Positions 5,053 to 55,830 of a stretch of 64,000 bases of DNA are shown here, piece after piece. The DNA comes from Ignavibacteriota bacterium (lineage in GTDB: Bacteria; Bacteroidota; Ignavibacteria; UBA10030). The stretch is from NCBI GenBank assembly GCA_963701295.1, contig OY969585.1, forward strand, positions 2,880,895 to 2,944,894. The letters run 5' to 3'. Made by a program: the position numbers and the translations under genes. Positions within the stretch are counted from its first letter, which is position 1. Each line of letters begins with the position of its first letter. The notes under the pieces were generated by a model. The model did not search any database. It had not been told where the DNA came from and saw only the letters and a list, made by a program, of their open reading frames with translations.

Positions 5053-5058
5053 TAATTT

Positions 5059-34584: not shown

Positions 34585-35322
34585 CTAATGTTCATGCCGC
34601 CACAACTCGCGCCATGAATGTATTTCTTCCACTTTTGGATAGCGTGCCGGTGCTTTTCCCGTTATGAGGTATCGTACATCGCAATACGCATGAAAAAGAA
34701 CTGTCGGAAGTAAATTCTTTTTCAATCTCCGTGTTGAAACCAACGCACGTGCTTTTCTATTAACGGTACAGAATCCTAAATGCGACATTCTTCTGCTCAA
34801 GTCAAGATCTTCGACGATACCAAAATCTTCCCGAAACCCGCCGGCTGCTTCAAATCCTGCACGCCTATACGCTACGCAAATTCCTGGAAAGAGTGGCAGT
34901 CCGAAGAAATCGAATAATCGAACCATACCGTATGTGCTTCGATACACACAGCGCCGCAAAATACCGCCGTCACATGGTTGTGCCATGCCAGTCATGCCGA
35001 TAATCGCCGGATTTGAAAATTCCTGATGACAATAGCTAAGAAAATCTTGATCCAAAGTTGCATCTGCATCGACAAAAATGAGAATATCTCCGCGTGCTTT
35101 TTTCGCGCCGATATTACGGCCGTAGGCAATTCCTTTCCGATCTTCCACAAGAACGCTATCTGCATATGGACGTGCAATGTCTGCAGTGTGATCCGTTGAA
35201 CGCGCATCGGAAACAATAATTTCAAATTCTGTTCGTTGATATCGCTGCTCACCTAGTGATCGAAGGCATCTTTCGATACATCCTTCTTCCATATAGGTGG
35301 GAACAATAATTGAGAATTCCAT
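34585..35322 (-). CDS. Glycosyltransferase family 2
   Basis: FSIIVPTYMEEGCIERCL...VSDARSTDHT...FVDADATL. Confidence 0.7.
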   Translation of the reverse strand: MEFSIIVPTYMEEGCIERCLRSLGEQRYQRTEFEIIVSDARSTDHTADIARPYADSVLVEDRKGIAYGRNIGAKKARGDILIFVDADATLDQDFLSYCHQEFSNPAIIGMTGMAQPCDGGILRRCVYRSTYGMVRLFDFFGLPLFPGICVAYRRAGFEAAGGFREDFGIVEDLDLSRRMSHLGFCTVNRKARALVSTRRLKKNLLPTVLFHAYCDVRYLITGKAPARYPKVEEIHSWRELWRHEH

Positions 35323-35331
35323 CGAATCTCC

Positions 35332-38300: not shown

Positions 38301-40605
38301 TTGATGTTTTATAAAAATCGATGGCAATGCCGCCGATCGGCCGCGGTTGAATGATCTCGTTTATAACTTGTTGATTCACAGAATGAAATGTTGAATACTC
38401 ACTGCTAGTGGAACCGCCGGCAAAGAACATATATCGTTTATTCCAGACATCGGATGTCTGTGTTACGTATGTTTGCAGCCTTGTAAAATAGCGTTGAAAT
38501 TCATCCGTTGACGCTACAGGCAATCGCCCCAAATACATTTGAGGAATATCAAGTGAATCATACAGTTTGGCTATCCATTGATCACTTACAGGCATACCAA
38601 ATACCGGAACAACGTTCCGGACATAACTGCCCTCTGCAATGCCGAGATAATTCTTAAAATCGTAATTGGCTTCGCCCACCAATAACACGTACAAAGGCAT
38701 GGGCGACGTCCAATTCGTGGTTGCTTTCAAAAATTCCCGTTCCGCTTCAGGAACAGGATAACCATAACCGAATTCATCAAATATATCTTTTATATTGATA
38801 ATGGCAGTCATCAAGCCGTATGTTGATTGGATAAAGGCAGTGTACTGTTCTGCAAGAGAAAGAAATGAGGAATCAGTGATCAAGAGATAATCGGCGTGAC
38901 GAGAAGAATTTCGTAAATCGACAAAGGCACTTTTATATGCAATCAGCGGTGTTGCAATTTTTGCCGATGAGACAATAACGTAGCGGTCTCCATTGCGAAC
39001 AGTATCTACGAAAGAGACAGTATACGTCCCTGAACCATCAACTGTTCCTAAAATACGTTTTGGATATTTTCCTGATTTATAAATTACCGCGCTGTTTGAT
39101 GCAAGTCCATGAAGAACCACTCTCCGTACGGCAGTACCGCTGAGATCATGAAATCCAAACCAGAGACTGTCATCTGTTGCTGTCAGCGAACGAGGGTATT
39201 CAACATCTGCCCAATCAAATACAATTGAATTGGTTGACGATGCCGAAGCATAGGAATACAGATGCAAGGTATTTGTTCCCTCGGTTAGGATCGAAGTACT
39301 GATCGCCCGCCGTAGGATCGATTGTTCAAAAGGACCAAGAATCGACGTATCAGGAAGCAATGTAGAATTGATACCGATTTGCACCATATGAGCATTTGCG
39401 ATGGAGCTGATAGCTGCCGATCCCGCCACCTTCATCAAAATTCGAGGAGAAAATGCTCCGGATTGTATCTGCGTCGCAGAAAAAGTCGGATCACAACTTC
39501 CTCCCGCATAGATATATGTCCAGACCCACATATCACCGGATGTCCAGTATGGATTCTGCTGTTCTACCGCATCATCGCCGCAATACGCATAGACTGTATT
39601 TTGTTCGATGTGAACGTTTTCCGTGTACCAGAAAAGCGAATCATTGGGTGTTACTGTTGTATCGTTCGTTGTATATCGCGCACCAGACGCACTTCCCCAT
39701 TCTAACCAGTAATAGGAAGTGTCGGTGTATCGGTTGAGATATTCGGAATATTCTTCCTCGCCAGTCGGAATGATCCGATACAGTGTATCAGGGTTATAAT
39801 TTTTTGTACCAACAAACTCAAGATAATCTCCTGCAGAAAAAGTATGAGCGGATACAGTGTTCACCGTCATCGGCAATTCATGTCCTTTGTTGAATAATTG
39901 AAACGTCGTCGGATCTGCTTGTGCCAACTCCGATGCAATGCTCGTTAATTGCACATAGGAAAGACGGTACACACCATCGCCGGGAATGGTAATTTTGATC
40001 GCTTTGCCGTTGATTGGAATCCATGCTTTCGTCGAATCACTCCACGTAAGTGCTTCCGTAGAAACAAATGAGGAAGCGCTATTCACTTCCAATGCATTCA
40101 AAACGGATTGAAATTGTTTATCATTGGCGGATGTCGCTGAAACCGGAAGTAGCGAGCCGCTTAGAGTCACATCAATCGTATCAACAGATTGAACAGTTTG
40201 ACCGTATCGTACAAGAGGCGCCACCGATAATTCCGCTAAACGTTGTCCCCGGAACCAGCGATATCCTTTCAATGTAACAAGAGAACTTCCCGAACTCGGT
40301 ACTTGCTGCCGCACTTGCTCTAGAGACGATGAAAATTTAGATATTTTTCCCGAAAGCGTATGTGCAGAATGATGGCGCACTTGTAGTTGAATCTTCGCCT
40401 TTGGCGCTATCGCATAATAACATGTGTATGATGTCTTCGCAGCTGTATCGGTTTCTGCATGATGCAAAACAAATTGAATATTCATTCCGCTTTGTGAAGA
40501 ATGCAGGTTCGCTCTTCCCCATGGAAAATATTTTTGTTGTGCAACAGCAGTGGAATCAAACAACAGCGATATCAGCAAAATCACGCCGACAATAAATCTG
40601 CTCAT
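35332..40605 (-). CDS. Very large type-IX-secretion cargo protein with a peptidase C25 (gingipain)-like domain
   Basis: About 1757 aa from the internal start MSRFIVGVILLISLL (signal peptide). Candidate catalytic His (ITYIGHSGTETW) and Cys (FISDFGCSTGKF). The C-terminus reads FNYPNPFASETYF...GIYFYKVIA, a type-IX sorting domain. Confidence 0.7.
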   Translation of the reverse strand: MSRFIVGVILLISLLFDSTAVAQQKYFPWGRANLHSSQSGMNIQFVLHHAETDTAAKTSYTCYYAIAPKAKIQLQVRHHSAHTLSGKISKFSSSLEQVRQQVPSSGSSLVTLKGYRWFRGQRLAELSVAPLVRYGQTVQSVDTIDVTLSGSLLPVSATSANDKQFQSVLNALEVNSASSFVSTEALTWSDSTKAWIPINGKAIKITIPGDGVYRLSYVQLTSIASELAQADPTTFQLFNKGHELPMTVNTVSAHTFSAGDYLEFVGTKNYNPDTLYRIIPTGEEEYSEYLNRYTDTSYYWLEWGSASGARYTTNDTTVTPNDSLFWYTENVHIEQNTVYAYCGDDAVEQQNPYWTSGDMWVWTYIYAGGSCDPTFSATQIQSGAFSPRILMKVAGSAAISSIANAHMVQIGINSTLLPDTSILGPFEQSILRRAISTSILTEGTNTLHLYSYASASSTNSIVFDWADVEYPRSLTATDDSLWFGFHDLSGTAVRRVVLHGLASNSAVIYKSGKYPKRILGTVDGSGTYTVSFVDTVRNGDRYVIVSSAKIATPLIAYKSAFVDLRNSSRHADYLLITDSSFLSLAEQYTAFIQSTYGLMTAIINIKDIFDEFGYGYPVPEAEREFLKATTNWTSPMPLYVLLVGEANYDFKNYLGIAEGSYVRNVVPVFGMPVSDQWIAKLYDSLDIPQMYLGRLPVASTDEFQRYFTRLQTYVTQTSDVWNKRYMFFAGGSTSSEYSTFHSVNQQVINEIIQPRPIGGIAIDFYKTSNPVSSFGPYTTTQIANAIDSSALMITYIGHSGTETWDNDINKVTDLANTVGRFPFISDFGCSTGKFAEPNISSFSEQFVVGSNSSAIGYIGNSSLGFESIATTLPEYFFEEVMADSTHTIGKDHLLGKILTLNQNGWNNSAMGRQLMLTNTLIGDPAVRLAIPSLPNLVISSSLITSSPSFPSDDNDVISLTIPYHNLGAVPTDTFKVKVTHTYLTTSSDTIFALPVPLYADTIHLSYVVKNLPGEHTFVIQLNPARTVSESNYSDNSCEYSVVVQTAVYRIAYPVPGLNCPPKKFILLNPVKKPSDTNAVTIMIDTSDSFSTASSYTAPIGQVVTSFTPADIAVKRYYWKTSGSLSPTSGSFVPSSDSLTRWTQTVPSEWTTNSYSHCFHDSTGVHLLVSTYSIEIVSSGRNTIDYGAVKVNGINLLGSTFNRGITIVQLDTMDYHAIQQQSFDTYGDSTSSTKLIKFLEAMPNGSLVAMVVIDDAFNGVLIPGSSSPTPAAANAIKEFGSAYIDKLTDYTTGWRASWALLGRKGDPVGTALEGWYIGSDSLRVQLDTTFIRPALSGYVLSPSFGPSSQWKQAAITKTTPAGSNLGMYVLGTTLTGSVDTLVTNDTSSTLTLASFSAKKYRTLQLLGKFTANASGETPLLKNWNVLLKPPPELAINYQCVSITSDTLMEGKSLGITAKIYNAGEQPADSVKVVFTLMNNGIRQKDTVIIPVVPADSFTTVTYSLATTGRAGSNTEILSIDPQQSIPEIYTINNYYSVSFYVQTDTTRPTFAITFDGQRIYNGDYVLPSPTIKIAIYDNSPLPISDPSSVYLALDGRRVALGPMPDSLFISQSGQSGNAKASVTYHPTLATGDHTLSVRVMDASGNYSDSVATQIQFRVETNLKLLDVFNYPNPFASETYFTFILTDYADEIKIKIYTIAGRLIQDIQVPPQANAYYRVYWNGRDHDGDNIANGIYFYKVIAKSNKSGTEVIQKLAKVR

Positions 40606-40640
40606 AACTGTACAACTAAAATTTGCTATCATCTCTGAAT

Positions 40641-42440
40641 TCAGCATTTCAGAGACCAATAATATCGTTTGATACCTTGCCCAATACCTGATAATATACA
40701 ATAACTTTCTGAAAGAGATAATCTAAACTGCAGCGTCTTTTTAATTGTTCGTAACACACAAAACGGAATAACGAACATCATGCATAAATGATTTCGATTT
40801 TTTAGGAAATAAATAATTTCGTTGTGGTGAAAATCCCTGTAATATTGCGCCGTTGCATTTATCTGTAAAAGAACATTTCCTGTCTTTTGAGGGATATGCT
40901 GGATAGTTGTCTCGTTCGTAAAACGAATACGGTAGCCCAAGCTTTTCAAACGCTCAGAAACATCTTGCTCTTCAAATATTGATGTCCCTCGAAATATTGC
41001 ATCAAAATAACCGGCTTCCTGCAACACAGTTTGTTTTATGGACATATTTCCCCCTACCAAAGTTTCGACATCACAACAAACATCGGAATGAAATCCATCT
41101 TTCATACGTCCGTACCATAATACACGACAAATATCTGTAGACATCAACGGCGGTAAATCGTTTTCAATAATTCTGCATGAAACACCCCCTATCGTAGTAT
41201 CTCTGTGATTCTTCACATGAACTTCCATCATCTTAGGAGAAGGAACAATATCATCATCACAGAATAAAAGAATATCTCCTGTTGCGTTACGAATTCCGAT
41301 ATTCTTAGCATTAGAGCGGTTGGGATAGGCAGAATACAGTAACTTCAATGGATAAGGAACAGATATACCTTGTCGTGATACTTGCTGTGTTGCACTACTT
41401 TGATCTACCACAATCACTTCAAACGATGTATAGGTTTGTTCTTTCAATGCTGTAAGTAAGTGGAGAACACATTCCGGACGATTACAGGTCGGAATAATAA
41501 TAGAAACAAATGGTTGAAGACGTTGTTCTTCACTTTGGATAACAGTAAGAGCATTCGCTATTTGTTGAAAGTAATTATTGGAAAATCGATGTACGGATAG
41601 GATATGATTACGTGATTCAATCCATTTGGCAAGAAGTCGAAACCAGAGACTATATATTCGCTTCATCCATATCGCACGTCGTAAGGCATGACGACGATGG
41701 AAGCGAAGAAAATTACGATAAAATTCTATTTTGTGCCGTTCCTGTACTTGCGTAAAACTTGCGCCTCCGTAGTGAATAATTGACACGGATGGAACATGCA
41801 TCACTTTAAATCCCGATGTTCGCAATCGGAACGGTAAATCAGCATCTTCAAAGAAAAAGGAAAAACCTTCATCAAATCCACCAACAGCATTAAAGTGCGA
41901 ACGGCGCAAGAATAGAAACGCCCCCTCAACATAATTTACATTTTGCCGCAGGGAGATGTTTTTGCGTCGCTCTTCAAATTCACGCCATATACCACGAAAA
42001 TTGTTCGGCACAATTTCTAATAACAACCCGCGTAACACTGTCGTTCGGGAAAACCTTGTCCTGCTATTGTCGTTTCCATCTTTATGTTGACATCCTAGCA
42101 AAGCAATCAGAGCATCTTGTTCCATAAAAGAACACAGCGTTTCTATAGCTCCGGGTTCGACAATAACATCGGCATTGGAAATAACTACATATCGTGTCGT
42201 AAGCAGTGTAGAACCAGTGTTAGCGGCATGCCCATAACCGAGATTCTCGTTCAACACACAAAATCGAATTTGTGGATACTGCACCCGAAGCTGCTCTACG
42301 CTACCATCAGTTGAACCTTGATCGAGAACAATAAGATTCTTTAACAACACACCATCCGATAAAAAAGAAGCAACACAATTCAACAAATGTTGACACGTAT
42401 TCCAACTGATAATAACTACTCCAATATCAGGTAAAATCAC
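40641..42440 (-). CDS. Glycosyltransferase with two tandem GT2 domains
   Basis: N-terminal domain (VVIISWNTCQHL...DQGSTDGS) plus a second GT-A domain (VSIIIPTCNRPECV...VVDQSS). Confidence 0.7.
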   Translation of the reverse strand: MILPDIGVVIISWNTCQHLLNCVASFLSDGVLLKNLIVLDQGSTDGSVEQLRVQYPQIRFCVLNENLGYGHAANTGSTLLTTRYVVISNADVIVEPGAIETLCSFMEQDALIALLGCQHKDGNDNSRTRFSRTTVLRGLLLEIVPNNFRGIWREFEERRKNISLRQNVNYVEGAFLFLRRSHFNAVGGFDEGFSFFFEDADLPFRLRTSGFKVMHVPSVSIIHYGGASFTQVQERHKIEFYRNFLRFHRRHALRRAIWMKRIYSLWFRLLAKWIESRNHILSVHRFSNNYFQQIANALTVIQSEEQRLQPFVSIIIPTCNRPECVLHLLTALKEQTYTSFEVIVVDQSSATQQVSRQGISVPYPLKLLYSAYPNRSNAKNIGIRNATGDILLFCDDDIVPSPKMMEVHVKNHRDTTIGGVSCRIIENDLPPLMSTDICRVLWYGRMKDGFHSDVCCDVETLVGGNMSIKQTVLQEAGYFDAIFRGTSIFEEQDVSERLKSLGYRIRFTNETTIQHIPQKTGNVLLQINATAQYYRDFHHNEIIYFLKNRNHLCMMFVIPFCVLRTIKKTLQFRLSLSESYCILSGIGQGIKRYYWSLKC

Positions 42441-43348
42441 AATCGACTCCGAAAAAGCAAAAATAATTTATCGCCTAAATAGGTTGCAAACCAATAGCGC
42501 CATAGAATCCAATTTTTCCACATTGTGGGAAATGCCTGCACAAACCATTGGCGCGCTATTCGCATGTGACCATGATAGTATTCATTTAAGCCGAGGCGAA
42601 ACTTTATAGCATATTGGTCGTTCACCGTCAGGTTGTTGTGAAGTTTATGTAATAAATAATCATTAGCAAAATTCAAGGTATAAATTCGTTGTTCGTTTTT
42701 TCGTTCGACAGAAATAGCATGTGCATGGAGGCGATACCGAAGAAGGACTTTTTGAAGATTATAAAAGTTCGTAACCGGCAATAGGCGAAGAAAGAATTCA
42801 TAATCAATTGCGCTTTGACACATTTCATTGAAACCTCCAACAACATCAAATAACTCTCTGCGCATCATGGTCGCAGGAAAGCACATAGAAGAATGCTTTG
42901 TTATTTCATATTCAATATCAGTATGTTGTTCTGGTAATCTGCGAATGGTGTGCATCACGTTGTTGCGTGCATCCATAAGCTGGTACCAGCAGGATACCAC
43001 GCCAATTTCAGGATGTTCCTGCAAAATATGATATTGTTCCTTTAATCGATCAGGTAGCGCAACATCATCTGCATCCATAAAAGCAATAATCGGAGCTTTG
43101 GTATGTTTAATTCCTTCATTTAAGGCATGCGCACGACCGGAATGATTAATAAAAATAGCTTTTCTCCTATCATCATGAAGCGACTCGATAAGAGTCCTCG
43201 TTCTGTCGGTAGAACCATCATCCACGATAAGCAATTCATAGTCGGTCATCGTCTGAGCAAGAATACTACGAATCGCTGCTTCAAGATACCGTTCTCCATT
43301 GTACACTGACATAACAATGGACACTTTACTCAATAGATCTTTACTCAT
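42437..43348 (-). CDS. Glycosyltransferase family 2
   Basis: VSIVMSVYNGERYLEAAIRSI...IVDDGSTDRT...DADD. Confidence 0.75.
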   Translation of the reverse strand: MSKDLLSKVSIVMSVYNGERYLEAAIRSILAQTMTDYELLIVDDGSTDRTRTLIESLHDDRRKAIFINHSGRAHALNEGIKHTKAPIIAFMDADDVALPDRLKEQYHILQEHPEIGVVSCWYQLMDARNNVMHTIRRLPEQHTDIEYEITKHSSMCFPATMMRRELFDVVGGFNEMCQSAIDYEFFLRLLPVTNFYNLQKVLLRYRLHAHAISVERKNEQRIYTLNFANDYLLHKLHNNLTVNDQYAIKFRLGLNEYYHGHMRIARQWFVQAFPTMWKNWILWRYWFATYLGDKLFLLFRSRL

Positions 43349-43360
43349 ACCATTCTCTTA

Positions 43361-44281
43361 TCACAACCAATGAGGTCTGCGGAAAGAATACTCCCCATCT
43401 CGAAAAAATCCACCGGCATGGTTTCCGTAACCATATCTCTTTTGAATATTACGAGACATAACTTTTCGTAGCTTCCAATTTCTTATCACTATCCATAAAC
43501 CTGCAATAAATCCTCTTGAAATGGTTAAAGCACATCCCTTGCAAATCCCAAAAATAATTCTTCCCATGATAATCCTAGTTATTCTTCCTATAACCCTATG
43601 TAATGAATAATGTGAGACTAAAATAATAATGATATTGCGATTACAATAGTATTGTTTTCTTAAATCGATTGAATTATTCGTTTTATACAAACGATGTGAG
43701 GATGAATAGGTATGATGCACGATTGCATTGGACTCATATTCAATATCATAACCTTTGTGTAATACGCGGAGGGAGAAATCTATTTCATGCGAATAAAGAA
43801 ACAAGTCTTCGTTAAACATCCCGGCAGATAAAAACATCGCATGTCGAAACAGCACTCCACAACCAATAAAGTTTGGATAAATAGAAAAACTTTTTTGAGT
43901 AGTCTCATGTTTGTTCAATGTATCATTATATATATTCAATGCTAATATTGCACAGTTAGGTAAACGATTCATCGTTTGTACACTTATTCCAAGCGCATCT
44001 TTTTCCGGATAACTATCATCATCCAAAAATAACAGATACTCCCCTTTCGCTATCTTTGCTCCCTCATTCCAGCCTGCTATGCCAATATTTTTCTGTAACT
44101 CAAGCAAACGGACGGTAGGATATTCTGATTTCACCATTTCAACAGAGCCGTCGTGAGAATTGTTATCAACAACAACCACTTCTATGTTTTTGTAGTCCTG
44201 CTCAAATACTTTTTGGAGAGTATTCCGTAAGTAGTCTTTTCTGTTGTACGAAAGAATATTTACTGTAACAAGAGGCTGCAT
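43361..44281 (-). CDS. Glycosyltransferase family 2
   Basis: VTVNILSYNRKDYL...VVVDNNSHDGS. Confidence 0.7.
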   Translation of the reverse strand: MQPLVTVNILSYNRKDYLRNTLQKVFEQDYKNIEVVVVDNNSHDGSVEMVKSEYPTVRLLELQKNIGIAGWNEGAKIAKGEYLLFLDDDSYPEKDALGISVQTMNRLPNCAILALNIYNDTLNKHETTQKSFSIYPNFIGCGVLFRHAMFLSAGMFNEDLFLYSHEIDFSLRVLHKGYDIEYESNAIVHHTYSSSHRLYKTNNSIDLRKQYYCNRNIIIILVSHYSLHRVIGRITRIIMGRIIFGICKGCALTISRGFIAGLWIVIRNWKLRKVMSRNIQKRYGYGNHAGGFFRDGEYSFRRPHWL

Positions 44282-44282
44282 G

Positions 44283-45377
44283 TTAAGAATGGGTGATGTT
44301 CTTAAAAGCTGTTAATGACTGCGCAATAACCTGATCCATATTGTAATAGCGATAAGTCGCAAGCCGGCCGACAAAATGCACAGTTTTCAATTTTTCCGCT
44401 TCGGCAGCATATAATTTATATAACGCTGTATTTTCGTCATTCGGTATAGGGTAATATGGCTCGCCTGTCTCGTGTGAATATTCTTTTGCTATAGTTGTCT
44501 TGCTCTGGTGTTGTCCGGTAATATGTTTGAATTCGATACTCCGTGTATAGGTAAAATCGTTCGGGTAGTTCACCTGCGCAACCGGTTGAACAAATTCCTT
44601 CTCGTGAGTCTCAAATTCAAAACTGAGCGAACGATACGGTAATGCACCAAATGTTTGATGAAAATACTCGTCAATCGGACCGGTGAAAATCAACCGGTTA
44701 AAAGTCCCGGACGGTATATTTTTAAAATCAGTATTGAGCTCAACCGAAATCAACGGATGAGCGATCATTTTGTTAAACATCTCGGTGTATCCATTAGCGG
44801 GCATCATTTGAAAGCGGTCATCAAAATATCGATCATCTGTATTCGTTCGGATCGGTAACCGGCCACAAACAGATGGTGCTAAATGTGATGGTTCGACACC
44901 CCAATGTTTTGTCGTATATCCTTTATACAACAAATCATACAATCGCCTGCCGATCTTTGAAACAACAACATCTTCAGAGTTTCGAATAAATGAGATCGAT
45001 TCTTTCTCCCGCTCATAAAAGGCTCTTACTTCTTCGTCGGTTGTATAATGAAACCCAAAAAGAGTGTTGACAGTTGTTCTATTGACCGGCATCGGAACAA
45101 GTGAACCGTTCACCGACGCCAAGACCCGATGTTCGTACGGATGCCATGAAGTAAATTGCGATAAGTACTTGATGATGCTTTCATCATTTGTATGGAACAA
45201 ATGAGGACCATAATGGTGTATACGAATACCGTGTTCATCGATGGAATCATATGCATTTCCACCGATGTGAGAACGACGATCAATCACTAGAACCTTCTTT
45301 CTTAATTGCGACGCCAATCGCTCCGCAAGCACACAACCAGCAAAACCGGCACCAACTATGAGATATTCGTATTTCAT
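44283..45377 (-). CDS. glf: UDP-galactopyranose mutase
   Basis: YEYLIVGAGFAGCVLAERLA FAD-binding fold and a length of 364 aa, typical of Glf. Confidence 0.9.
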   Translation of the reverse strand: MKYEYLIVGAGFAGCVLAERLASQLRKKVLVIDRRSHIGGNAYDSIDEHGIRIHHYGPHLFHTNDESIIKYLSQFTSWHPYEHRVLASVNGSLVPMPVNRTTVNTLFGFHYTTDEEVRAFYEREKESISFIRNSEDVVVSKIGRRLYDLLYKGYTTKHWGVEPSHLAPSVCGRLPIRTNTDDRYFDDRFQMMPANGYTEMFNKMIAHPLISVELNTDFKNIPSGTFNRLIFTGPIDEYFHQTFGALPYRSLSFEFETHEKEFVQPVAQVNYPNDFTYTRSIEFKHITGQHQSKTTIAKEYSHETGEPYYPIPNDENTALYKLYAAEAEKLKTVHFVGRLATYRYYNMDQVIAQSLTAFKNITHS

Positions 45378-46459
45378 TGTACATCCAATTTAATGGAATC
45401 CATCCTTAATACAATGGACGATATTTTTTCGGCCACATACTCAGAACCTTCGGGAGACAGATGCCCATCGTCTTTGATATAATAATTTCCAATATCAGTC
45501 GGTGACATTTTTTTTATATCATCATATAACTCATAATAGAAGACCTGCGTATCTTTAAGTGATTGTATAAAGTCATGGTCTTCTAAATTTTCTATTTGCA
45601 GTAAATTATCTACCCTGGGACAACGTATAACAATAAGACGTTGGTTATTGAGTTTTACACAAGTGATTAAATCTGCAAATATCTTTTTAACGATACCGTC
45701 GCTTTTGAACTTTAAATATCGTTTGTAAAAAGGGTTTAATAATTTACTATACTCTAACACTTTAATAATAACTTCGGGTGAATTATTTCTTGATGATCTT
45801 AACATCAGTTCACCATTTTCTAAATCATAACTTGGTTTATTCATTCCTTCAACTTTGCGATAGGCTTCTAATACGCGCGGAATGTCATCCTCGATAAACA
45901 TGAGAACGATGATTTGAGGCTTTATAATTGGTTCGTATTTTTTGTATGCTAGATACATTTGATCAATACCCCACCCAGGCATCCCCATATTATAAACGTT
46001 ATACTGTGACCCCAGTTTTTCTTGAAGCTTCGACGAAATAGTTGATTTTTCATCAAGAAAAACTCCAAATATAAATGAATCACCCAATAACATCACTCTT
46101 GTGTTGTTGTTTTGAGCACAAGCTGTATCATAATCGTTAGTATTTCTAAACCCTTGATTATTTATTACATACTCCACTTTTAGATCTTTGTACTTTTTAT
46201 TTGAAAATGGAATGTACTTATTCTTTTTGCATACCCATCCCAAGTCCTTTTCAGTTAACGGCCACGTGACATCGACAAGATTTGTATCAACATGGATCTC
46301 CTTATTTTTATATTGCCCGGGATATGTTCGTGAATAATTTGTTTTATCCGACCAGAATATTCTCAGCCCAATCTCAAGTAAAATCATTAACATAAGCGTT
46401 AATAGCACATTCCATAAAATTAGCCTTACAATTCTTAGATATTTTTTCCGCTTGGTCAT
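45374..46459 (-). CDS. Membrane-anchored SGNH/GDSL-family hydrolase (possible polysaccharide O-acyl esterase or transferase partner)
   Basis: Block I LLGDSFIFG, block II GMPGWG and block V DDGHLS motifs. N-terminal transmembrane helix. 4-bp overlap with glf. Confidence 0.55.
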   Translation of the reverse strand: MTKRKKYLRIVRLILWNVLLTLMLMILLEIGLRIFWSDKTNYSRTYPGQYKNKEIHVDTNLVDVTWPLTEKDLGWVCKKNKYIPFSNKKYKDLKVEYVINNQGFRNTNDYDTACAQNNNTRVMLLGDSFIFGVFLDEKSTISSKLQEKLGSQYNVYNMGMPGWGIDQMYLAYKKYEPIIKPQIIVLMFIEDDIPRVLEAYRKVEGMNKPSYDLENGELMLRSSRNNSPEVIIKVLEYSKLLNPFYKRYLKFKSDGIVKKIFADLITCVKLNNQRLIVIRCPRVDNLLQIENLEDHDFIQSLKDTQVFYYELYDDIKKMSPTDIGNYYIKDDGHLSPEGSEYVAEKISSIVLRMDSIKLDVQ

Positions 46460-46713
46460 TATTACGCTATTCAGTTCGTTATTCTTGTGTAATTCTTCAG
46501 AAGATTTAATCTGTTAAGTAATTTCTGATAAAGCGTTGAGAATAATCGTTGTCACTGATGCACAAATTGAAATTTTTGAAAAAGGTAGATGATCGGCTGG
46601 AATAATATTCATGTTGTCAGTTTTAGTTTAAATTCAGACTTCCTAAAAGATAAGAATGCCCGCCCTTCCAATTATTCTGACGTATTAAACTAGATTATTC
46701 TATAATCAAATAG

Positions 46714-48078
46714 TTACGTTTGTTTCCGATACCATCTCGTCATCAAAATGCCATACACAGCGATAAATGCTGCGCCTGAGGTTCTAAGGCTGAAAGAAAA
46801 AAGTAATACACAGAGCCCCATAGCCATAAGAGCGATAACCGCTATCTTTATAATGCTAAGGACTTCTTTCGTGAAGGTCAATGGAACTTCATGGTTAAGC
46901 GCCTTCCATGAACGCACTGCAACAAGAGTCTCGGCAAAGATTGTTGTCAGAGCGGCTCCAGTCATTCCATACATCGGAATAAGGAACACATTGAGAAGAA
47001 GATTCAATCCTGCACTCCAAGCGACAATCGATAAGTATTTCTTTTCCTTCCCGAGCAAAAGAAGCGGCTGAGCAAATGTGATACTGATGAAAACAGCTAT
47101 TATATCCAACGAGAGAAGACGGAGCGGAAGCACTGCACCGTCGTACGCCGAACCATAGAGCATTGTAATGAATTCCGGCGCATAGATGCCTATGAGGATT
47201 CCGGTCGGCAATCCAATCATACACATCGTCAAGACAAACGCTTTCCATTCTTTCACTGCTGCGGTTTTAAGTGAAACGAGATACGGCAAATAAGAAGCGA
47301 AAAGAAGATTAGGAATTGCCGAAGCGAGCGTGACAATTTTGTAAGCACTTGTGTACAGTCCGACTTCACGGCTTGTTTTGAACACCCCCAGAAGCACCGT
47401 ATCTATATTCAAATAAACCTGGACACACATGGAAGCCGCACCTACTGTAATCGCCGAAATGCAATATGCGCGAAGTTGCTCCCACCGTACGCTATGCATC
47501 CATACAAAGTTTTTTCTGAGTATTCCTGACATTGGAATGAGCGCGAGGGCGGAAGAAACTGCAAAAAAGACCGGCACACGGGGAAGATCTCCAGCACTTT
47601 GGACGCCGCCAATAACAAAAAGAAGATACAGCAAGCTCTGCGCAAAACGGCTGACCGCCACAATATGCATTTGATTATGAGCGCGGAAAAAGAATTGAAA
47701 CGTAAAGGGAATGGTAAACAGTGCCAAACCTTGCAGAATCAATAATTGTTTTACAGCTAAAGAAAACGGAACAAACAAGCAGACCAGCAGCAAGAGAGCA
47801 AAAGAGGCGATCGCAGAACCTGATTTTAAAAGAAAGAGAGAAGTGAGAATGCCGGAAGGTTCTTTTTCAGAACGCGCAGTCTCACGCGCGCCGACGATAT
47901 CATACCCTGGATTAGCAATAAGAGCAAAATATGTATACACCGCAACGACAAATCCATAGTCGCCAAACCCATTCACTCCAATTCTTCTCGCAAGATATGC
48001 AGTAGTGAGGAACCCTAAGACTTTGGAAACAATTTCTGCCGACGATAAGAAAAAGAAATTTTTTTCAGCACTTCTCAT
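46714..48078 (-). CDS. Wzx-type flippase / polysaccharide biosynthesis protein (MOP superfamily)
   Basis: Start set at the internal ATG (MRSAEKNFFF...) to avoid a 140-nt overlap. Multi-transmembrane. N-terminal pattern ...LARRIGVNGFGDYG... typical of the family. Confidence 0.55.
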   Translation of the reverse strand: MRSAEKNFFFLSSAEIVSKVLGFLTTAYLARRIGVNGFGDYGFVVAVYTYFALIANPGYDIVGARETARSEKEPSGILTSLFLLKSGSAIASFALLLLVCLFVPFSLAVKQLLILQGLALFTIPFTFQFFFRAHNQMHIVAVSRFAQSLLYLLFVIGGVQSAGDLPRVPVFFAVSSALALIPMSGILRKNFVWMHSVRWEQLRAYCISAITVGAASMCVQVYLNIDTVLLGVFKTSREVGLYTSAYKIVTLASAIPNLLFASYLPYLVSLKTAAVKEWKAFVLTMCMIGLPTGILIGIYAPEFITMLYGSAYDGAVLPLRLLSLDIIAVFISITFAQPLLLLGKEKKYLSIVAWSAGLNLLLNVFLIPMYGMTGAALTTIFAETLVAVRSWKALNHEVPLTFTKEVLSIIKIAVIALMAMGLCVLLFSFSLRTSGAAFIAVYGILMTRWYRKQT

Positions 48079-48101
48079 GCGAATGGCGGCAATTTCACGC
48101 G

Positions 48102-48896
48102 TTATCGTTTCAAGAACCGTGCGTGGAGAATACGGAGAAGAAACAACGGATTTCCGATCAAATATCGTTTCCACAATCTTCGCGGTTCTTGGATGAGGCG
48201 GAACGCCCACTCGAATCCAAGAGCTCCGAGCCACCGCGGGCAATTTATTTTATCGCCTGAGACGGTATCAAGAAAACCTCCGCCCATCCAGATTAAATTC
48301 ACATTCAGCTTTGAAAAGTTTTCCTTCGTCCAGGCTTCCTGCAGGGGAACTCCCATTCCTAAAAGAAGAATATCCGGCTGGCAAGCATTAATAGCACGAA
48401 CGACAGAATTGTTTTCCTCTTCCGAAATAAAGCCATGATGATATCCCGAAATCTGCAAGCCGGGATATAATTCCTTCAGCCTCGTTGCGGCACGCTCTGC
48501 AACAGACGATGCACCGCCAAGGAAGAACAACTTCAAGTCGTTTTCAACAGCACTCTCGGCTATGTCGTAAATATAATCCGAGAGCGTAATACGCTCGGGA
48601 ATATTTTCGCCTAAGAGCCGTGCTCCTAAGCGAACTCCCTCGCCATCGCAATAACTCACGAGCGATTGATCAAGGAATTCCTTGAACCATGGTATCTCCA
48701 GCGCGACATCAATCGTGTGAATATTGATATAGGAAAACCAGCCTCGCCGTTTGGTTTTTATAGAGTAGAGAATGAGCGACTTGAATTGCGAACGTGTGAG
48801 AATATCAACACGGATATCGAGAATACTCGTTGATCGAATCAATGGTTTTTCTTGTTCACTATGATGGCTCGGATGTGCGGACGCTGAATTGGACAT
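48102..48896 (-). CDS. WecB/TagA/CpsF-family glycosyltransferase (GT26)
   Basis: ILDIRVD...SYINIHTIDVA...LFFLGGASSVAERAATRLKELYPGLQISGYHHGF...GMGVPLQE. Confidence 0.7.
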   Translation of the reverse strand: MSNSASAHPSHHSEQEKPLIRSTSILDIRVDILTRSQFKSLILYSIKTKRRGWFSYINIHTIDVALEIPWFKEFLDQSLVSYCDGEGVRLGARLLGENIPERITLSDYIYDIAESAVENDLKLFFLGGASSVAERAATRLKELYPGLQISGYHHGFISEEENNSVVRAINACQPDILLLGMGVPLQEAWTKENFSKLNVNLIWMGGGFLDTVSGDKINCPRWLGALGFEWAFRLIQEPRRLWKRYLIGNPLFLLRILHARFLKR

Positions 48897-48912
48897 AATC
48901 ACCAACCGCTCA

Positions 48913-50786: not shown

Positions 50787-50810
50787 GAATGTATAGTTCT
50801 TTGTGCGTAG

Positions 50811-51243
50811 TTAATTAGTACTTCGTTCTTTGTGCCTCGGTCTTTGTGCTTCGTTCTTTGTGCTTAGTTTTTTGTACTTAGTTCTTTTTAATAAGTATTG
50901 GATAAATCCACCAATAAGATTTTTAATATCTTTTGCTTCTGTGAATAATTCATCAAATTCATTTTGAGTAATATATCGGCAATCAACGACAACGTATAAG
51001 AGCGTTTGGACTTCGGAAGTTGATCTGTAAGCATAATTTACAGAAAAGGATAAAACTTTTCCTCGATCCCGAATCAAATCCCTCTGCAATATTTGCCATA
51101 ATAGAAACTGTTGCACGTTGAATCTGTTCTCTTAGTCCAAAATCTTTTGCGAAATCTCCTTTGGCTGTCAAGCCATATATTCGCGATGTCAGCTCACGAG
51201 CCTTTTTCCACGATTCAATATCTTCAAATCGTTCAATCTTCAA
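50811..51243 (-). pseudogene. Four-helix-bundle protein (TIGR02436-like), frameshifted; the 3' end runs into a tandem repeat
   Basis: Frame A gives MKIERFEDIESWKKARELTSRIYGLTAKGDFAKDFGLREQIQRATVSIMANIAEGFD. Frame B gives ...SEVQTLLYVVVDCRYITQNEFDELFTEAKDIKNLIGGFIQYL. Joined, they match the full family. The extended tail ...KERSTN is a translation of the 14-bp repeat. Confidence 0.55.
50832..50900. repeat. Tandem 14-bp repeat, 5 copies (TTCGTTCTTTGTGC and variants)
   Basis: Read directly: ttcgttctttgtgc / ctcggtctttgtgc / ttcgttctttgtgc / ttagttttttgtac / ttagttcttttt. Confidence 0.7.
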
Positions 51244-51287
51244 TTTCTATCATTCTCTTATTTCCAACAGAACTAACCAACTCTGAA

Positions 51288-52328
51288 CTAGTATCCACGT
51301 TTCTTCACTTTTTCAAAATCTGCATGTGCCATCATTTTCGCTAAGTCGCGAAATGTTGTCTTCGGCACCCACCCCAATTTATTTTTGGCTTTTGTTGCAT
51401 CTCCCATAAGCAATTCAACCTCTGTTGGACGATAATATCGAGGATCGACTTCTACGAATGTCTTGCCGTCTTTTTTCGATATTCCTATTTCCTGTTCCTT
51501 CTCGCCTTTCCACACCAAATCCATCTCTAATTCAGTAAACACTGTTTCGATAAATTCTTTCACAGAATGCGCCTCGCCGGTGGCAAGCACAAAATCCTCC
51601 GGTACATTCTGCTGCAGCATACGCCACATCCCTTCACAATATTCCGGCGCATATCCCCAATCGCGTTTTGCGTGAAGATTTCCTATTGTAAGTTTTTCTT
51701 GCAAACCAAGCTTGATTCTTGCAGCCGCAAGCGTAATCTTTCTCGTTACAAAGGTTTCACCGCGGCGGGGAGATTCATGATTAAAGAGGATACCATTACA
51801 GGCATACAGCCCGTATGCTTCACGATAATTGATGATGATCCAGTACCCGTACAGCTTCGCTACACCATACGGACTGCGGGGATAAAATGGCGTTCGCTCT
51901 GTTTGCGGCACTTCCTGCGCTTTGCCGAACAATTCGCTTGTCGAAGCCTGATAAAACCGCGTGCGAACTCCCGTCTCCCGAATCGCATCCAAGAACCGCA
52001 GTGTCCCTACAGCATCCACCTCAGCCGTGTACTCAGGAACCTCAAATGAGACTTTCACATGGCTTTGCGCGGCAAGATTATAGATTTCCTCGGGTTCAAC
52101 TTTTTCGAGGAGACGGTTGAGGTTGCTCGTATCCGTCACATCGCCATAATGCAGGAACATACGATCGCCGTATATTTTTGGATTATTGTAAAGATGATCG
52201 ATACGGCCTGTGTTGAATGAACTGCTGCGTCGAATGATTCCGTGTACTTCATACCCTTTTTCAAGCAAGAGTTCCAAAAGATAGGAACCATCCTGGCCGG
52301 TGATACCGGTAATGAGCGCTTTTTTCAT
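51288..52328 (-). CDS. gmd: GDP-mannose 4,6-dehydratase
   Basis: [35 protein letters not shown]...[10 protein letters not shown]...NHESPRRG. Confidence 0.95.
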
Positions 52329-52335
52329 AAAAATT

Positions 52336-52419
52336 AGTAAAGAGTGAATGGTGAATAGTAAATGGTGAATAGTAAATAGTAAATGGTAAATAGTAAATAG
52401 TGAATAGTAAATAGTGAAT
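52336..52419. repeat. Tandem heptamer array, 12 copies of RGTRAAT
   Basis: agtaaag agtgaat ggtgaat agtaaat ggtgaat agtaaat agtaaat ggtaaat agtaaat agtgaat agtaaat agtgaat. Confidence 0.8.
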
Positions 52420-52450
52420 TGTTCATGATATCTGATTAAAAGTAAAAAAA

Positions 52451-52759
52451 TCAGTCTCGAATAGATTTACTCAAACCGCTGAGTAGTTTCTGAATCTCTA
52501 TCAGATGAACTTCAATCCTTTCGTACTGTGCTTTATCAAAATAATTCATATTCAGGCATATCTCTACCTGCGTATCAATCTCACTAAGAGAACCTTGTGC
52601 AACATTAAGGAAATACAATTTCTCTTTTTTCGATTTTCGTGTAAGTCCTTCTGCTATATTTGAAGGAACTGATACGGCAGCTCGCTTCAACTGCGACTTT
52701 AAACCAAACTCTTCATCCCGTGGAAATGTCTTTGTTTCTTCATAAATCAATGTGACCAA
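52451..52759 (-). CDS. Four-helix-bundle protein (TIGR02436-like); no ATG start, N-terminus uncertain
   Basis: ...[28 protein letters not shown]...[12 protein letters not shown] matches the family. The in-frame upstream sequence codes ...[18 protein letters not shown] (helix 1) but has no ATG/GTG/TTG start there. The ORF track begins at a TTG. Confidence 0.6.
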
Positions 52760-52839
52760 TGCAATACTTTTCTTCCATGCTTCCAGCTTTTTGTGCGCCT
52801 TTCGTTGATCACAATTACTTTCTTTTCTCTGTTCCCTGT

Positions 52840-52874
52840 TTCCTCATTACTCTTCACCGTTTACTCTTTATCGG
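52840..52874. repeat. Short heptamer-periodic repeat (CATTACT CTTCACC GTTTACT CTTTATC GGTTACT) abutting the stop of the epimerase gene
   Basis: Read directly. Pyrimidine-rich on the plus strand. Confidence 0.5.
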
Positions 52875-53840
52875 TTACTTATTTTTCTTCTTTAATTTTA
52901 CTTGCGCTTCCACCCATGGATAGGTCAGTTTAATCCCATCTTCAAGATATACCTTCGCTTTCCAGCCAAGTGAGAATATCCGGTCATTTGAGAAATTACG
53001 CGATTGAACTCCGACCGGGCCCTTGACATGCTTGATAATGATTTTCTTTTCTGCGACCTTCGCGACTGTATTGGCGAGCTCATCAACCGTTACATACTGC
53101 GGGCATCCGATATTCACAGCTCCCCTCAAATCCGAATGCATCAAGAGATAAATACCATCCACCATATCGCTTACGTAGGTATAAGAACGAACTGCTGTGC
53201 CATCTCCCCAGACTTCAATTGTGCCGCCATTTTCGGCTTCCGCCACTTTGCGAGACATTGCAGCGGGAGCTTTTTCCCGTCCGCCCGTCCAGGTGCCTTC
53301 CGGGCCGTAGCAATTTTGAAACCTCGCAATCCTTACTTGCATTCCATACCGGCGCTCATACGCCATGGCAATACGCTCAGAATAAAGTTTCTCCCACCCG
53401 TATTCGTTATCGGGATGCGCAGGAATTGCCTGATCTTCCGACATCTCAGGCTCGCCCGGTTTCATATCGCGATAGACACAGACAGACGAGGAAAAGAAAT
53501 AGCGAGGTACGCCCATTCTTGCCGCGAGATCCGTCATATAAATATTCACAAGCGCGCTATTGTGCATGATCTCGGTTTCAGCGGAATGAATAAAGCCCAT
53601 TCCACCCATATCTGCAGCAAGTTGATATACTTCATCGAATGTACCGCCATCGACCGTAAGCGCTGTACGACAATTGTCTTCAATCCTTAGATCCAGCAAG
53701 AGAAATTCATCCGCCGCCTTCGGCGACCATTCGTGCGGCTTGATATCGACGCTGCGAACCCAGTAGCCTTCTTTTTTGAGTTTCTTTACAAGATGACAGC
53801 CAATAAAACCTCCTGCACCGCATACTAAAGCTTTTTTCAT
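52875..53840 (-). CDS. GDP-mannose 3,5-epimerase-like NAD-dependent epimerase
   Basis: ALVCGAGGFIGCHL plus LAADMGGMGFIHS...FFSSSVCVYRD, which matches the GDP-mannose-3,5-epimerase hallmark (AADMGGMGFIQS...YASSACIYPE) as I remember it. Confidence 0.65.
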   Translation of the reverse strand: MKKALVCGAGGFIGCHLVKKLKKEGYWVRSVDIKPHEWSPKAADEFLLLDLRIEDNCRTALTVDGGTFDEVYQLAADMGGMGFIHSAETEIMHNSALVNIYMTDLAARMGVPRYFFSSSVCVYRDMKPGEPEMSEDQAIPAHPDNEYGWEKLYSERIAMAYERRYGMQVRIARFQNCYGPEGTWTGGREKAPAAMSRKVAEAENGGTIEVWGDGTAVRSYTYVSDMVDGIYLLMHSDLRGAVNIGCPQYVTVDELANTVAKVAEKKIIIKHVKGPVGVQSRNFSNDRIFSLGWKAKVYLEDGIKLTYPWVEAQVKLKKKNK

Positions 53841-53850
53841 GATGTTATCA

Positions 53851-53878
53851 GTTAAGAGTTATGAGTGAATAGTAAATT
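53851..53878. repeat. Short heptamer repeat (AGTTAAG AGTTATG AGTGAAT AGTAAAT)
   Basis: Read directly, upstream of the epimerase-like gene. Confidence 0.4.
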
Positions 53879-54099
53879 TGTTAGATAGTTATTTTGTTCT
53901 TAGTTGTTAGTTAAAGACATATTTTATTAACCGATGGTATGAAGAAAACCCGAATTTTTATATCAGAGTAAGAAATCATTCAATGCACTTCCCCTTTTTC
54001 CCCTTCTTAACTAAGGAGGGGATATGGAGTAGTTGAAATTTTTGATTGGTGCATTTTCTATTGTAACTTCTTGTGCGGTTTTTACCTTTCTACTTGCTA

Positions 54100-54176
54100 A
54101 ATCTTCTTACTTATCACGTATTACCTATCACTCTTCACCGTTCACTCTTCATCGTTTACTCTTCACTCTTTACTGC
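54100..54176. repeat. Heptamer-periodic array of about 11 units; starts within the last codons and stop of ugd
   Basis: The minus strand reads AGTAAAG AGTGAAG AGTAAAC GATGAAG AGTGAAC GGTGAAG AGTGATA GGTAATA CGTGATA AGTAAGA. Confidence 0.7.
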
Positions 54177-55476: not shown

Positions 55477-55484
55477 AATGACTT

Positions 55485-55547
55485 GTAAATAGTTAAGAGT
55501 TTATGTTGAATGGTTAATAGTAAACAGCAAACAGTGAATAGCAATCA
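55485..55547. repeat. Heptamer-periodic array of about 9 units immediately upstream of ugd
   Basis: tgtaaat agttaag agtttat gttgaat ggttaat agtaaac agcaaac agtgaat agcaatc. Confidence 0.6.
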
Positions 55548-55620
55548 TTAAAAAGTGGTCATCAAGGCATACGTTAACACTCCAAAAAAACCATAAGATT
55601 AATAATTTTACGGATTAATT

Positions 55621-55830
55621 GACAGAAAGTAAAGGATGAGAAGACGATAAACAGTGAATAGTGAAAGGTAAAGAGTTAAAATTGAATAGTGAATAGTAAA
55701 GAGTGAAGGGTTAAGAGGAAAGAGTGATGAGAGTTCGTAGTGCGTAGTTAACAGAGTAAAACAACGAAGAGTAAACAGTAAATGGTGATAAGTGATAGGT
55801 GAGATGTGAATTGTGAAGAGATACTCAACA
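55621..55830. repeat. Long purine-rich 7-bp-periodic array (~30 units) immediately downstream of the wbaP-like gene
   Basis: ...agtgaat agtgaaa ggtaaag agttaaa attgaat agtgaat agtaaag agtgaag ggttaag... The 99-aa minus-strand ORF at 55608-55907 is its low-complexity translation. Confidence 0.7.

Follow-up and report, generated by a model that had tools for sequence, protein, structure and literature searches.

Few protein families of unknown function are as abundant in Bacteroidota and Cyanobacteria as the four-helix-bundle (4HB) family PF05635/TIGR02436, which since the 1990s has been known only as an open reading frame (ORF) inside some 23S rRNA intervening sequences (IVSs). Intergenic tandem heptamers, such as the short tandemly repeated repetitive (STRR) and TAACTGA sequences, form an equally old and equally unexplained puzzle. 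Here we analyse a 64,000-nt stretch of an Ignavibacteriota bacterium genome (assembly GCA_963701295.1, contig OY969585.1, positions 2,880,895 to 2,944,894 of the forward strand; hereafter the window) in which two damaged 4HB genes, copy 1 and copy 2, are bordered by arrays of tandem heptamers. Our reading, which we hold to be probable, is that the window contains decaying copies of an IVS-like cassette, composed of a 4HB gene between complementary heptamer arrays and situated in the spacers of a nucleotide-sugar operon.

The closest described system is the IVS in the 23S rRNA of Coxiella burnetii, which sits at helix 45 and whose complementary termini, a 28-bp inverted repeat, form a stem that is cut internally by RNase III, with an S23p (PF05635) ORF in the loop (Warrier et al. 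2016, PMC4990558). An AG-rich stretch and two to three tandem copies of GACAGAT, their number varying by strain, lie just upstream of the start codon; the ORF has been described as dispensable and in reductive evolution, and ORF-bearing 23S IVSs are also present in Leptospira, Xanthomonas and Brucella (PMC4990558). The cassettes described here likewise carry a PF05635 gene flanked by complementary termini (the stem itself is predicted), with tandem heptamers of variable copy number adjoining the ORF start and purine-rich heptamers directly upstream of it, and their ORF is sense to the host transcript, apparently dispensable, and decaying through deletions and substitutions. Complementary termini are seen across relatives; in the window the folds pair the arms at z=-1.1, and the upstream arm of copy 1 is contracted. 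Their sporadic distribution, which suggests horizontal spread, is a further likeness to 23S IVSs. They differ in their host, which is the spacer of an mRNA operon (glycan, cys, nrd, cas and plasmid operons) and not helix 45 or helix 25 of 23S rRNA; in their arms, which are long tandem heptamer arrays instead of a unique 28-bp inverted repeat, with imperfect pairing in the window; in the probable double role of the downstream arm as leader of the next gene; and in the state of the copies outside the window, most of which are intact and under purifying selection. As the insertion into a 23S rRNA helix is absent, these cassettes are not IVSs in the strict sense, yet by sequence comparison they would appear to share every sequence-level feature of the Coxiella IVS except the host site.

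The TAACTGA repeats (PMC4679880), the cyanobacterial STRRs and the heptanucleotide elements of Geobacter metallireducens (PMC2700814) resemble our arrays in being tandem 7-mers confined to intergenic regions, in often ending a few nucleotides before a start codon and sometimes lying, reversed, just after a stop codon, in varying in copy number and presence among close relatives, and in occurring in Bacteroidota and Cyanobacteria. The units here (ATTCACT/ATTTACT, AGTGAAG/AGTAAAC, AAGAACN/AAGCACA and TAGTTCN) are distinct from TAACTGA, however, and the reports on those repeats describe neither paired complementary arrays around a gene nor a link to 4HB genes. Repetitive extragenic palindromes and bacterial interspersed mosaic elements (REP/BIME) and miniature inverted-repeat transposable elements (MITEs) are likewise short, hairpin-capable repeats in operon spacers with presence/absence polymorphism, but they carry no ORF, are not tandem heptamers and are moved by REP-associated tyrosine transposases (RAYT) or by transposases encoded in insertion sequences. 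Our literature search found no link of 4HB genes to heptamer arrays outside the Coxiella IVS, and it appears to be undescribed that 4HB genes in the operon spacers of several phyla stand between complementary heptamer arrays specific to their subfamily.

Inactivated 4HB genes in a nucleotide-sugar operon

The operon reads Bac_transf – ugd – [remnant] – epimerase – [copy 2] – gmd – [copy 1] – fcl – UXS. A first-pass annotation, made from the sequence alone, had placed both 4HB copies between gmd and fcl; this is correct for copy 1, but copy 2 lies in the spacer between the epimerase gene and gmd. Its description of both ORFs as 4HB genes was confirmed by searches with the profile hidden Markov models of PF05635 and TIGR02436, in which both copies score above the curated cut-offs over the domain. 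The window has no other family member by tblastn, and the two copies share 32% identity. Neither contains, as read, an uninterrupted family ORF of ∼115–135 codons with a start codon. The earlier impression that both genes are decayed was right, since one single-base indel inactivates each, and the frameshift correction that had been proposed restores each ORF by reversing a single 1-nt lesion (+1 near 51041 in copy 1, -1 between 52798 and 52797 in copy 2). For comparison we assembled three collections of loci, all chosen for carrying a 4HB gene: for the copy-2 subfamily 80 loci from genomes, for the copy-1 subfamily 80 from metagenomes, and in addition 10 regions of cyanobacterial plasmids.

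Copy 1 (50811..51243, minus strand) has a TTG start at 51243 and a stop codon at 50813-50811. Its two halves match positions 1-64 and 62-105 of the PF05635 domain, TIGR02436 too being matched in two frames, and joined across the lesion they score 103.1 bits against PF05635 and 100.3 bits against TIGR02436 (cut-offs 33.8 and 24), in agreement with the frameshift that had been noted. Alignment to the homologous proteins P0121-P0129, together with DNA comparison with loci L083, L084 and L085, places the lesion at one extra base in ‘ttc tGt aaa tta t’, where the frame shifts at Leu68; the likeliest extra base is the G at 51041, the most parsimonious candidate. The reference for this reconstruction was a set of intact homologues with 85-87% identity and the consensus ..KKSFILFLNYAYRS... 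Window copy 1 compared with intact orthologues gives ratios of nonsynonymous to synonymous substitution rates (dN/dS, Nei-Gojobori) of 0.24-0.36, against 0.11 between two intact copy-1-type genes, and therefore indicates relaxed constraint on the window lineage. Against L083 and L084, copy 1 has diverged at synonymous sites only about half as far (dS 0.21-0.23) as the neighbouring gmd (0.43-0.48); synonymous sites under constraint, or a recent exchange of the cassette, could account for this.

The downstream arm of copy 1 (50787..50890, minus strand) is an A/C-rich array of AAGAACN and AAGCACA units reaching to within 9 nt of the fcl ATG (50786); Tandem Repeats Finder (TRF) reports it at 50796-50887 with a period of 14 and 6.5 copies of AAGAACNAAGCACA. 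As the first-pass annotation had observed, this 14-bp array encodes, through its first units, the C-terminal tail of copy 1 (..KRTKYKKLSTKNEAQRPRHKERSTN*). The intact homologues P0122, P0123 and P0125 also read into the array (..KHKELSTKN), so the array-derived tail alone is no evidence of decay, and on these alignments it looks like a normal trait of the copy-1 subfamily. This type of downstream arm is common to L083, L084, L085 and 49 of 74 copy-1-type loci. The upstream arm (51244..51287, minus strand), right after the gmd stop codon, is a contracted U/G-rich series (TAGTTCA GAGTTGG TTAGTTC) with a short leader; at the same site L083 and L084 have about nine units (TAGTTCT, TAGTGCG), which are complementary to the AGAACTA and CGCACTA units of the downstream arm.

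Copy 2 (52451..52812, minus strand; stop codon 52453-52451) had been thought to lack a canonical start. This was a second frameshift misread: by alignment with its homologues (74-88% identity, 120-124 aa, N-terminus (V/M/L)(I/L)NERPHKKLE) the start is the GTG at 52812, and the gene reads GTG ATC AAC GAA AGG -CG CAC AAA AAG, one C of the Pro6 codon having been lost between 52798 and 52797. An alternative, loss of an A from the A5 run or slippage by -1 at A_AAA_AAG, was rejected, as the same alignment puts the lesion in the Pro6 codon. Read in frame, copy 2 covers all of PF05635 (positions 1-106 of 106) with 126.3 bits (cut-off 33.8) and scores 116.9 bits against TIGR02436 (cut-off 24). The corrected gene encodes a 120-aa protein with 88% identity to P0001 and 83% to the intact copy of L001. 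Among chains of the Protein Data Bank, phmmer returned 2gsc (XCC0516) with E=7.5e-28 and 2rld with E=6e-7, which makes the pentameric four-helix bundle 2gsc/XCC0516 the nearest solved structure, judging by sequence similarity.

Downstream of copy 2 (52329..52450, minus strand) a 31-nt trailer is followed by 12 heptamers (ATTCACT/ATTTACT/ATTCACC) that end 6 nt before the gmd ATG (52328; TRF 52335-52419, period 7, 12.1 copies). The upstream arm (52813..52879, minus strand) begins at the epimerase stop codon and consists of the purine-rich series AGTAAAC GGTGAAG AGTAATG AGGAAAC AGGGAAC and a leader (TRF 52847-52879; regular-expression match 52845-52865). In the predicted minimum free energy fold of the element as well as in the centroid fold the downstream arm pairs with the upstream one. 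The earlier observation that both copies are bordered by heptamer arrays is borne out by TRF, regular expressions and direct inspection. The upstream array of each 4HB gene, read on the coding strand, contains G but is poor in C, and the downstream array is poor in G (for copy 2, these are F-type and R-type, respectively); for both copies the two arrays are complementary. Between the downstream or R-type arrays and the ATG that follows (gmd, fcl, the epimerase gene or ugd) lie 0-40 nt. Arrays of at least three heptamers of the copy-2 type occur in the window only at 52.3-55.8 kb, by regular expression.

The spacer between ugd and the epimerase gene has the same array layout. An F-type array (AGTAAAG AGTGAAG AGTAAAC GATGAAG AGTGAAC GGTGAAG AGTGATA..; 54112..54174, minus strand; TRF 54128-54174) overlaps the last codons and the stop of ugd, and the final ugd codons (..RKSSKE*, 54163-54174) are encoded by its first units (agc agt aaa gag tga). 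It is followed by a stretch (53886..54111, minus strand) with the probable 4HB remnant accgcacaagaa (..RPHKK..) at 54079-54068, and then by an R-type array (TTTACT ATTCACT CATAACT CTTAACT; 53841..53885, minus strand) directly upstream of the epimerase ATG (53840). A 4HB gene stands right after ugd in L083, L084 and L001. In a gapped alignment with the ugd-to-4HB region of L083, the window spacer matches across the F array and on into the first ORF codons, and the R array is 83% identical to, and collinear with, the array after the intact 4HB gene of L083. The rest of the remnant spacer (∼190 nt) is unrelated to any 4HB gene, and tblastn shows no further 4HB signal there. From this collinearity a third 4HB copy, almost wholly deleted, probably lies between ugd and the epimerase gene.

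Occupied and empty spacers, and their arms, in other genomes

A comparison of the same spacers among syntenic relatives revealed that the spacers and their arrays persist, and that the ORF comes, goes and decays. In L083 an intact copy-2-type gene follows ugd, cargo-less arrays lie between the epimerase gene and gmd, and an intact copy-1-type gene lies between gmd and fcl. L084 has a frameshifted copy-2-type gene after ugd, a bare F/R pair at the exact site of window copy 2, and an intact copy-1-type gene between gmd and fcl. L001, which has no epimerase gene, has an intact copy-2-type gene after ugd and, between gmd and fcl, arrays with an internally deleted remnant (KIERFED...KDIKRLIGSLSNTYKK*). 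The window itself has after ugd the F array, accgcacaagaa collinear with L083, the ∼190 nt of unrelated sequence and the R array, and frameshifted copies 2 and 1 in the following two spacers. Window copy 2 and the ugd-adjacent copy of L083 are not orthologues and occupy different spacers, since their dS is 1.24 and that of gmd only 0.43. Among Nostoc plasmids, L170 has the 4HB gene one gene beyond its position in L167, L171 and L172, and array copy number changes fast between relatives. Loss of the ORF from persistent hairpin spacers fits these data as well as insertion does, and the remnants favour loss.

Decay of 4HB genes is real and recurrent, with frameshifts, a nonsense codon and internal deletions across several genomes; among relatives, L084 has a frameshift, L006 a nonsense codon, L001 a deletion and L091 a truncation, all of them independent lesions. 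The family in general is not junk, for copies elsewhere are mostly intact and under purifying selection. Copy-1-type ORFs are open in 71 of the 80 metagenome loci and disrupted in 9. By the Nei-Gojobori method dN/dS of intact copies is 0.05-0.14 (0.05-0.14 for copy-2-type genes, 0.11 for the intact copy-1-type pair), next to 0.04-0.05 for gmd.

The layout of an ORF plus arms recurs around the 4HB family in several bacterial phyla, in some 150 related loci. The association of the family with the repeats, whose absence elsewhere the first-pass annotation would have taken as a refutation, is therefore present in related loci. Of 47 tabulated loci, mostly of the copy-2 type, 23 had a period-7 signal above 0.6 on both sides of the gene; of 74 copy-1-type loci, 47 reached 0.57 or more on both sides. 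The background has its 95th percentile at 0.54. The two arms have a median of 12-16 6-mers in common in reverse complement versus 4-5 in direct orientation. Arm duplexes are also more stable than reversed-arm controls, which preserve composition and periodicity: -50.6 versus -33.4 kcal/mol in one set (53 of 71 loci, p=2e-8) and -45.3 versus -39.0 kcal/mol in a second (28 of 35 loci, p=5e-5). Controls based on consensus heptamers and cross-locus 6-mers were only moderate (5.2/7 versus 4.2/7 positions; at least 6/7 complementary in 35% versus 10% of loci); many loci share one unit, and arrays alternate as 14-mers.

The type of arm follows the ORF subfamily with no exceptions: copy-2-type genes had 20 A-type and no B-type arms, copy-1-type genes no A-type and 49 B-type arms. 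The unit differs by lineage and the arms stay complementary (AGTGAAN/NTTCACN, TAGTTCN/NGAACTA, GAGACGC/CGTCTCG, TTGAAC/GTTCAA, AAGTCC/GGACTT and GGTGCTT/AAGCACC). Complementary arms surround nine of the ten plasmid copies in Nostocales, with pairs such as GTAGGGA/TCCCTAC, CAGGTGA/TCACCTG and AGTCAGG/CCTGACT and duplexes of -88 and -89 kcal/mol. The gene is nearly always on the strand of its neighbours (32 of 33 upstream and 31 of 34 downstream), mostly with gaps below 150 nt. The family's suggested preference for glycan loci holds for this subfamily, in which genes for nucleotide sugars or polysaccharide export make up about two thirds of 57 immediate neighbours. In Chryseobacterium and its allies the 4HB gene is in a non-glycan locus, inside a perfect ∼40-bp stem (z=-6.4).

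Several of these loci are of interest in themselves. In L035-L082 (Chryseobacterium, Epilithonimonas and Soonwooa; ∼4950-5400) the 4HB gene is situated between a thiolase-like gene and a gene of ∼600 aa, and its arms AAAGAATAAAGAGAAAAGAC/GTCTTTATTCTTTTCTCTTTATTCTT are nearly invariant in 34 species while third codon positions of the ORF vary; in this clade the arm sequence itself seems to be conserved, beyond pairing. The arms of L038 (Bacteroidales chromosome OY820914, ∼4900-5450) have a period of 8, GGTGGTTA/TAATCACC, so the periodicity is not strictly heptameric. In L006 (4850-9600; Ignavibacteriales metagenome-assembled genome JAPLFP010000059) heptamer-array hairpins divide a series of small cassettes in the order cysC, F/R arrays, 4HB, cysD, 4HB with an in-frame stop (FPRRE*FG), MNT/HEPN pair, F/R arrays, HigBA (on the opposite strand), F/R arrays and MNT; the arrays therefore bracket genes of toxin-antitoxin type too, and not 4HB genes alone. 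Two cyanobacterial plasmids (L168, Anabaena sp. 90 pANA02; L165, Nostoc edaphicum pNe_5) have one cassette between cas6 and cas4 of a type I-D CRISPR locus and another, antisense, between nrdB and nrdA, the latter with near-perfect arms of eight GTAGGGA and five TCCCTAC units (duplex -89 kcal/mol). On six conjugative plasmids of Nostocales (L167, L169 and L171-L174) the upstream arm is a series of three to seven TCAGGAG units, resembling a Shine-Dalgarno sequence and ending at the 4HB start codon, and the downstream arm is its complement CTCCTGA, resembling an anti-Shine-Dalgarno sequence; pairing of such arms, as read from their sequences, would hide the ribosome-binding sites of the 4HB genes.

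Interpretation and competing explanations

On the reading that we prefer, the window has two, probably three, decaying copies of the cassette; this is not a new gene system, and the window copies are probably ordinary pseudogenes. The arms would pair in the polycistronic transcript and leave the ORF in the loop of a long imperfect stem. Such a stem could serve as substrate for double-strand-specific processing of the RNase III type, and we propose that the cassette is tolerated in transcribed spacers because the stem would be processed in this way. The protein would be dispensable to the host operon and lost by mutation, and the downstream G-poor arm, abutting the start codon of the next gene, may persist because it has turned into that gene's leader. 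A scan for promoters and terminators gave no terminator-like site on the coding strand of the cluster, which counts in favour of this reading. The proposal of the first-pass annotation that gene and repeats form, or formed, an insertion element stands only in part. ORF and repeats do behave as a unit, with arm types that track the subfamily, complementary arms and variable occupancy of spacers, but no insertion mechanism, transposase or target-site duplication was found: neither in nor next to the cassettes of the window and of the relatives' loci is there a transposase or recombinase gene, and target-site duplications were not evident by eye, no systematic search having been made.

Several results weigh against an IVS-like cassette. 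The stems of the window are weak (z=-1.1 for the copy 2 element), the bare F/R spacer of L084 gives z=+0.2, and the arm duplexes of the window are no better than mononucleotide shuffles, although this last control is uninformative because purine-rich and pyrimidine-rich sequences pair through their composition alone. Sense and antisense duplex energies are equal in a test that uses G-U pairs to detect selection at the RNA level, so the pairing cannot be assigned to RNA rather than DNA. RNAalifold gave no covariation signal for the arms of 34 Chryseobacterium-clade loci, which hold no covariation information because their arms are almost invariant. At 55.5-55.8 kb of the window, R-type arrays stand without F partner or 4HB gene. 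Array pairs running from F to R do speak for the cassette, enclosing a 4HB gene in 41 of 53 cases over 1 Mb of loci, but this share is inflated by the choice of loci for their 4HB genes. Two cyanobacterial copies are antisense to their neighbours, and relatives in Planctomycetota and Gammaproteobacteria show neither arrays nor stems.

Two other explanations draw on these same results. The position of the R-type arrays 0-40 nt before the ATGs of gmd, fcl, the epimerase gene and ugd, the arrays that stand alone at 55.5-55.8 kb, the weak predicted stems of the AGTAAAC/ATTCACT type, and the precedent of TAACTGA heptamers just before start codons in Beggiatoaceae, Cyanobacteria and some Bacteroidetes (MacGregor 2015, PMC4679880) would suit arrays that are independent intercistronic leaders or regulatory repeats (S1, Csp or CsrA-type sites, or unstructured G-poor leaders), the 4HB genes being ordinary small genes common in the same operons. 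We nevertheless regard this as unlikely. Leaders do not account for arrays that surround the ORF as complementary pairs, with many variants of the unit and outside glycan loci too; the ORF subfamily, and not the host operon, sets the arm type; ‘empty’ spacers contain 4HB remnants; and an upstream arm that follows a stop codon makes no sense as a translation leader of a host gene. A mobile or recombining element at the DNA level, of the MITE or REP/BIME kind, would have arms that act as terminal inverted repeats, pairing in single-stranded DNA, or as homology tracts, would be moved by a recombinase in trans or by homologous recombination from array to array, and would pair in RNA only incidentally. 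The equal sense and antisense energies, the position polymorphism within operons (the window versus L083 and L084; L170 versus L167, L171 and L172), the rapid change of array copy number between relatives, the two antisense cyanobacterial copies and the low dS of copy 1 (0.21-0.23, half of the 0.43-0.48 of gmd), which would fit recent exchange, all speak for such an element. It remains doubtful in view of the near-universal co-orientation with host genes, which it would not predict, the missing transposase or recombinase genes in cassettes and neighbouring genes, target-site duplications not being seen by eye, and viral contigs, in which relatives of neither subfamily were found.

Sequencing or assembly errors could make intact, expressed genes look like pseudogenes, and it is true that each lesion is a single base, that the one in copy 2 is within a CC dinucleotide and that ∼89% of copies elsewhere are open. 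Random error is unlikely to have placed two indels within ∼0.8 kb of 4HB sequence, however, because every other long ORF of the 64-kb window is uninterrupted, including one of 1789 aa. Given also that the insertion in copy 1 is outside any long homopolymer, that dN/dS is raised on the lineage of window copy 1, that the operon has a deleted third copy and that independent lesions occur in L084, L006, L001 and L091, we consider error to be quite improbable for the two frameshifts. Two further ideas can scarcely be right: that the genes code for the Avd accessory protein of a diversity-generating retroelement, and that programmed frameshifting lets them be expressed. The Avd protein does have a homologous four-helix-bundle fold that forms a pentamer, and copy 2 is weakly similar to it (PF22296 30.5 bits, NF033474 38.7 bits), but both scores are under the curated cut-offs of the Avd families (40 and 80 bits), the neighbours are sugar-nucleotide enzymes (ugd, epimerase gene, gmd, fcl and UXS), and there is no reverse transcriptase and no pair of template and variable repeats (TR/VR) nearby. 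Programmed frameshifting, for its part, is contradicted by close homologues that are encoded in a single frame and by the lack of a conserved slippery site at either lesion.

A bolder idea may be put forward tentatively, as something possible more than expected: a discrete, transcript-dwelling cassette, an ‘intervening sequence outside the ribosome’, which besides 23S rRNA genes would also colonise the spacers of operons (in Bacteroidota/Ignavibacteriota and Cyanobacteriota), whose paired arms would be cut by RNase III, whose protein may recognise its own subfamily-specific arms, and whose decayed ORFs would leave arrays resembling STRR and TAACTGA repeats. If true, the PF05635 family, the IVS ORFs and the intergenic heptamer repeats would have a common origin. 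The specificity of array type to gene subfamily ties both the family puzzle and the heptamer puzzle to the experimentally studied Coxiella IVS, and makes both testable in culturable carriers, namely Chryseobacterium with its ∼40-bp perfect stems and Nostoc with its plasmid copies. On a practical level, such cassettes explain recurrent small pseudogenes and repeat-rich spacers in the annotation of glycan loci, and contig breaks at such spacers. For the window itself the meaning is modest: since both ORFs that remain are inactivated, nothing but the arrays could still matter in this genome, and these are possibly functional.

Gene order of the window and further observations

All genes at 46.7-57.3 kb are on the minus strand. 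In order of transcription they are the sugar transferase gene Bac_transf (57270-55825), ugd (55476-54163), the gene for an NAD-dependent epimerase (53840-52875), copy 2 (52812-52451), gmd (52328-51288), copy 1 (51243-50811) and fcl (50786-49860), followed by a UXS-like gene. The spacer between ugd and the epimerase gene measures 322 nt. The one between Bac_transf and ugd (55477..55824, 348 nt, minus strand) is packed with ATTCACT-type heptamers, and the R-type units that stand alone there are CTTCACT, ATTCACT and GTTTACT (TRF 55653-55731; regular expression 55653-55708 and 55770-55797). Amid these R arrays, upstream of ugd, a non-repetitive block of ∼110 nt (..ccgtaaa.ttattaat...gatgac.ac..) is conserved between the window (∼55500-55640) and L001 (4490-4600), and may be a promoter or an RNA motif.

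Scans of the window for tRNA genes and for promoters and terminators gave nothing relevant, PADLOC gave no match, and Rfam, at E-value and gathering thresholds, no rRNA and no other family; a weak match to IS009 (21.8 bits against a gathering score of 117) was dismissed as chance. Finally, a block of ∼13.6 kb (35300-48900) is absent from the syntenic loci L083 and L084, where UXS leads directly to GT2 and Wzi. This variable block, which is free of heptamer arrays, contains a WecG/TagA-like gene, a flippase gene, several glycosyltransferase genes and the gene for a 1789-aa protein with a C-terminus resembling those of the type IX secretion system (T9SS).

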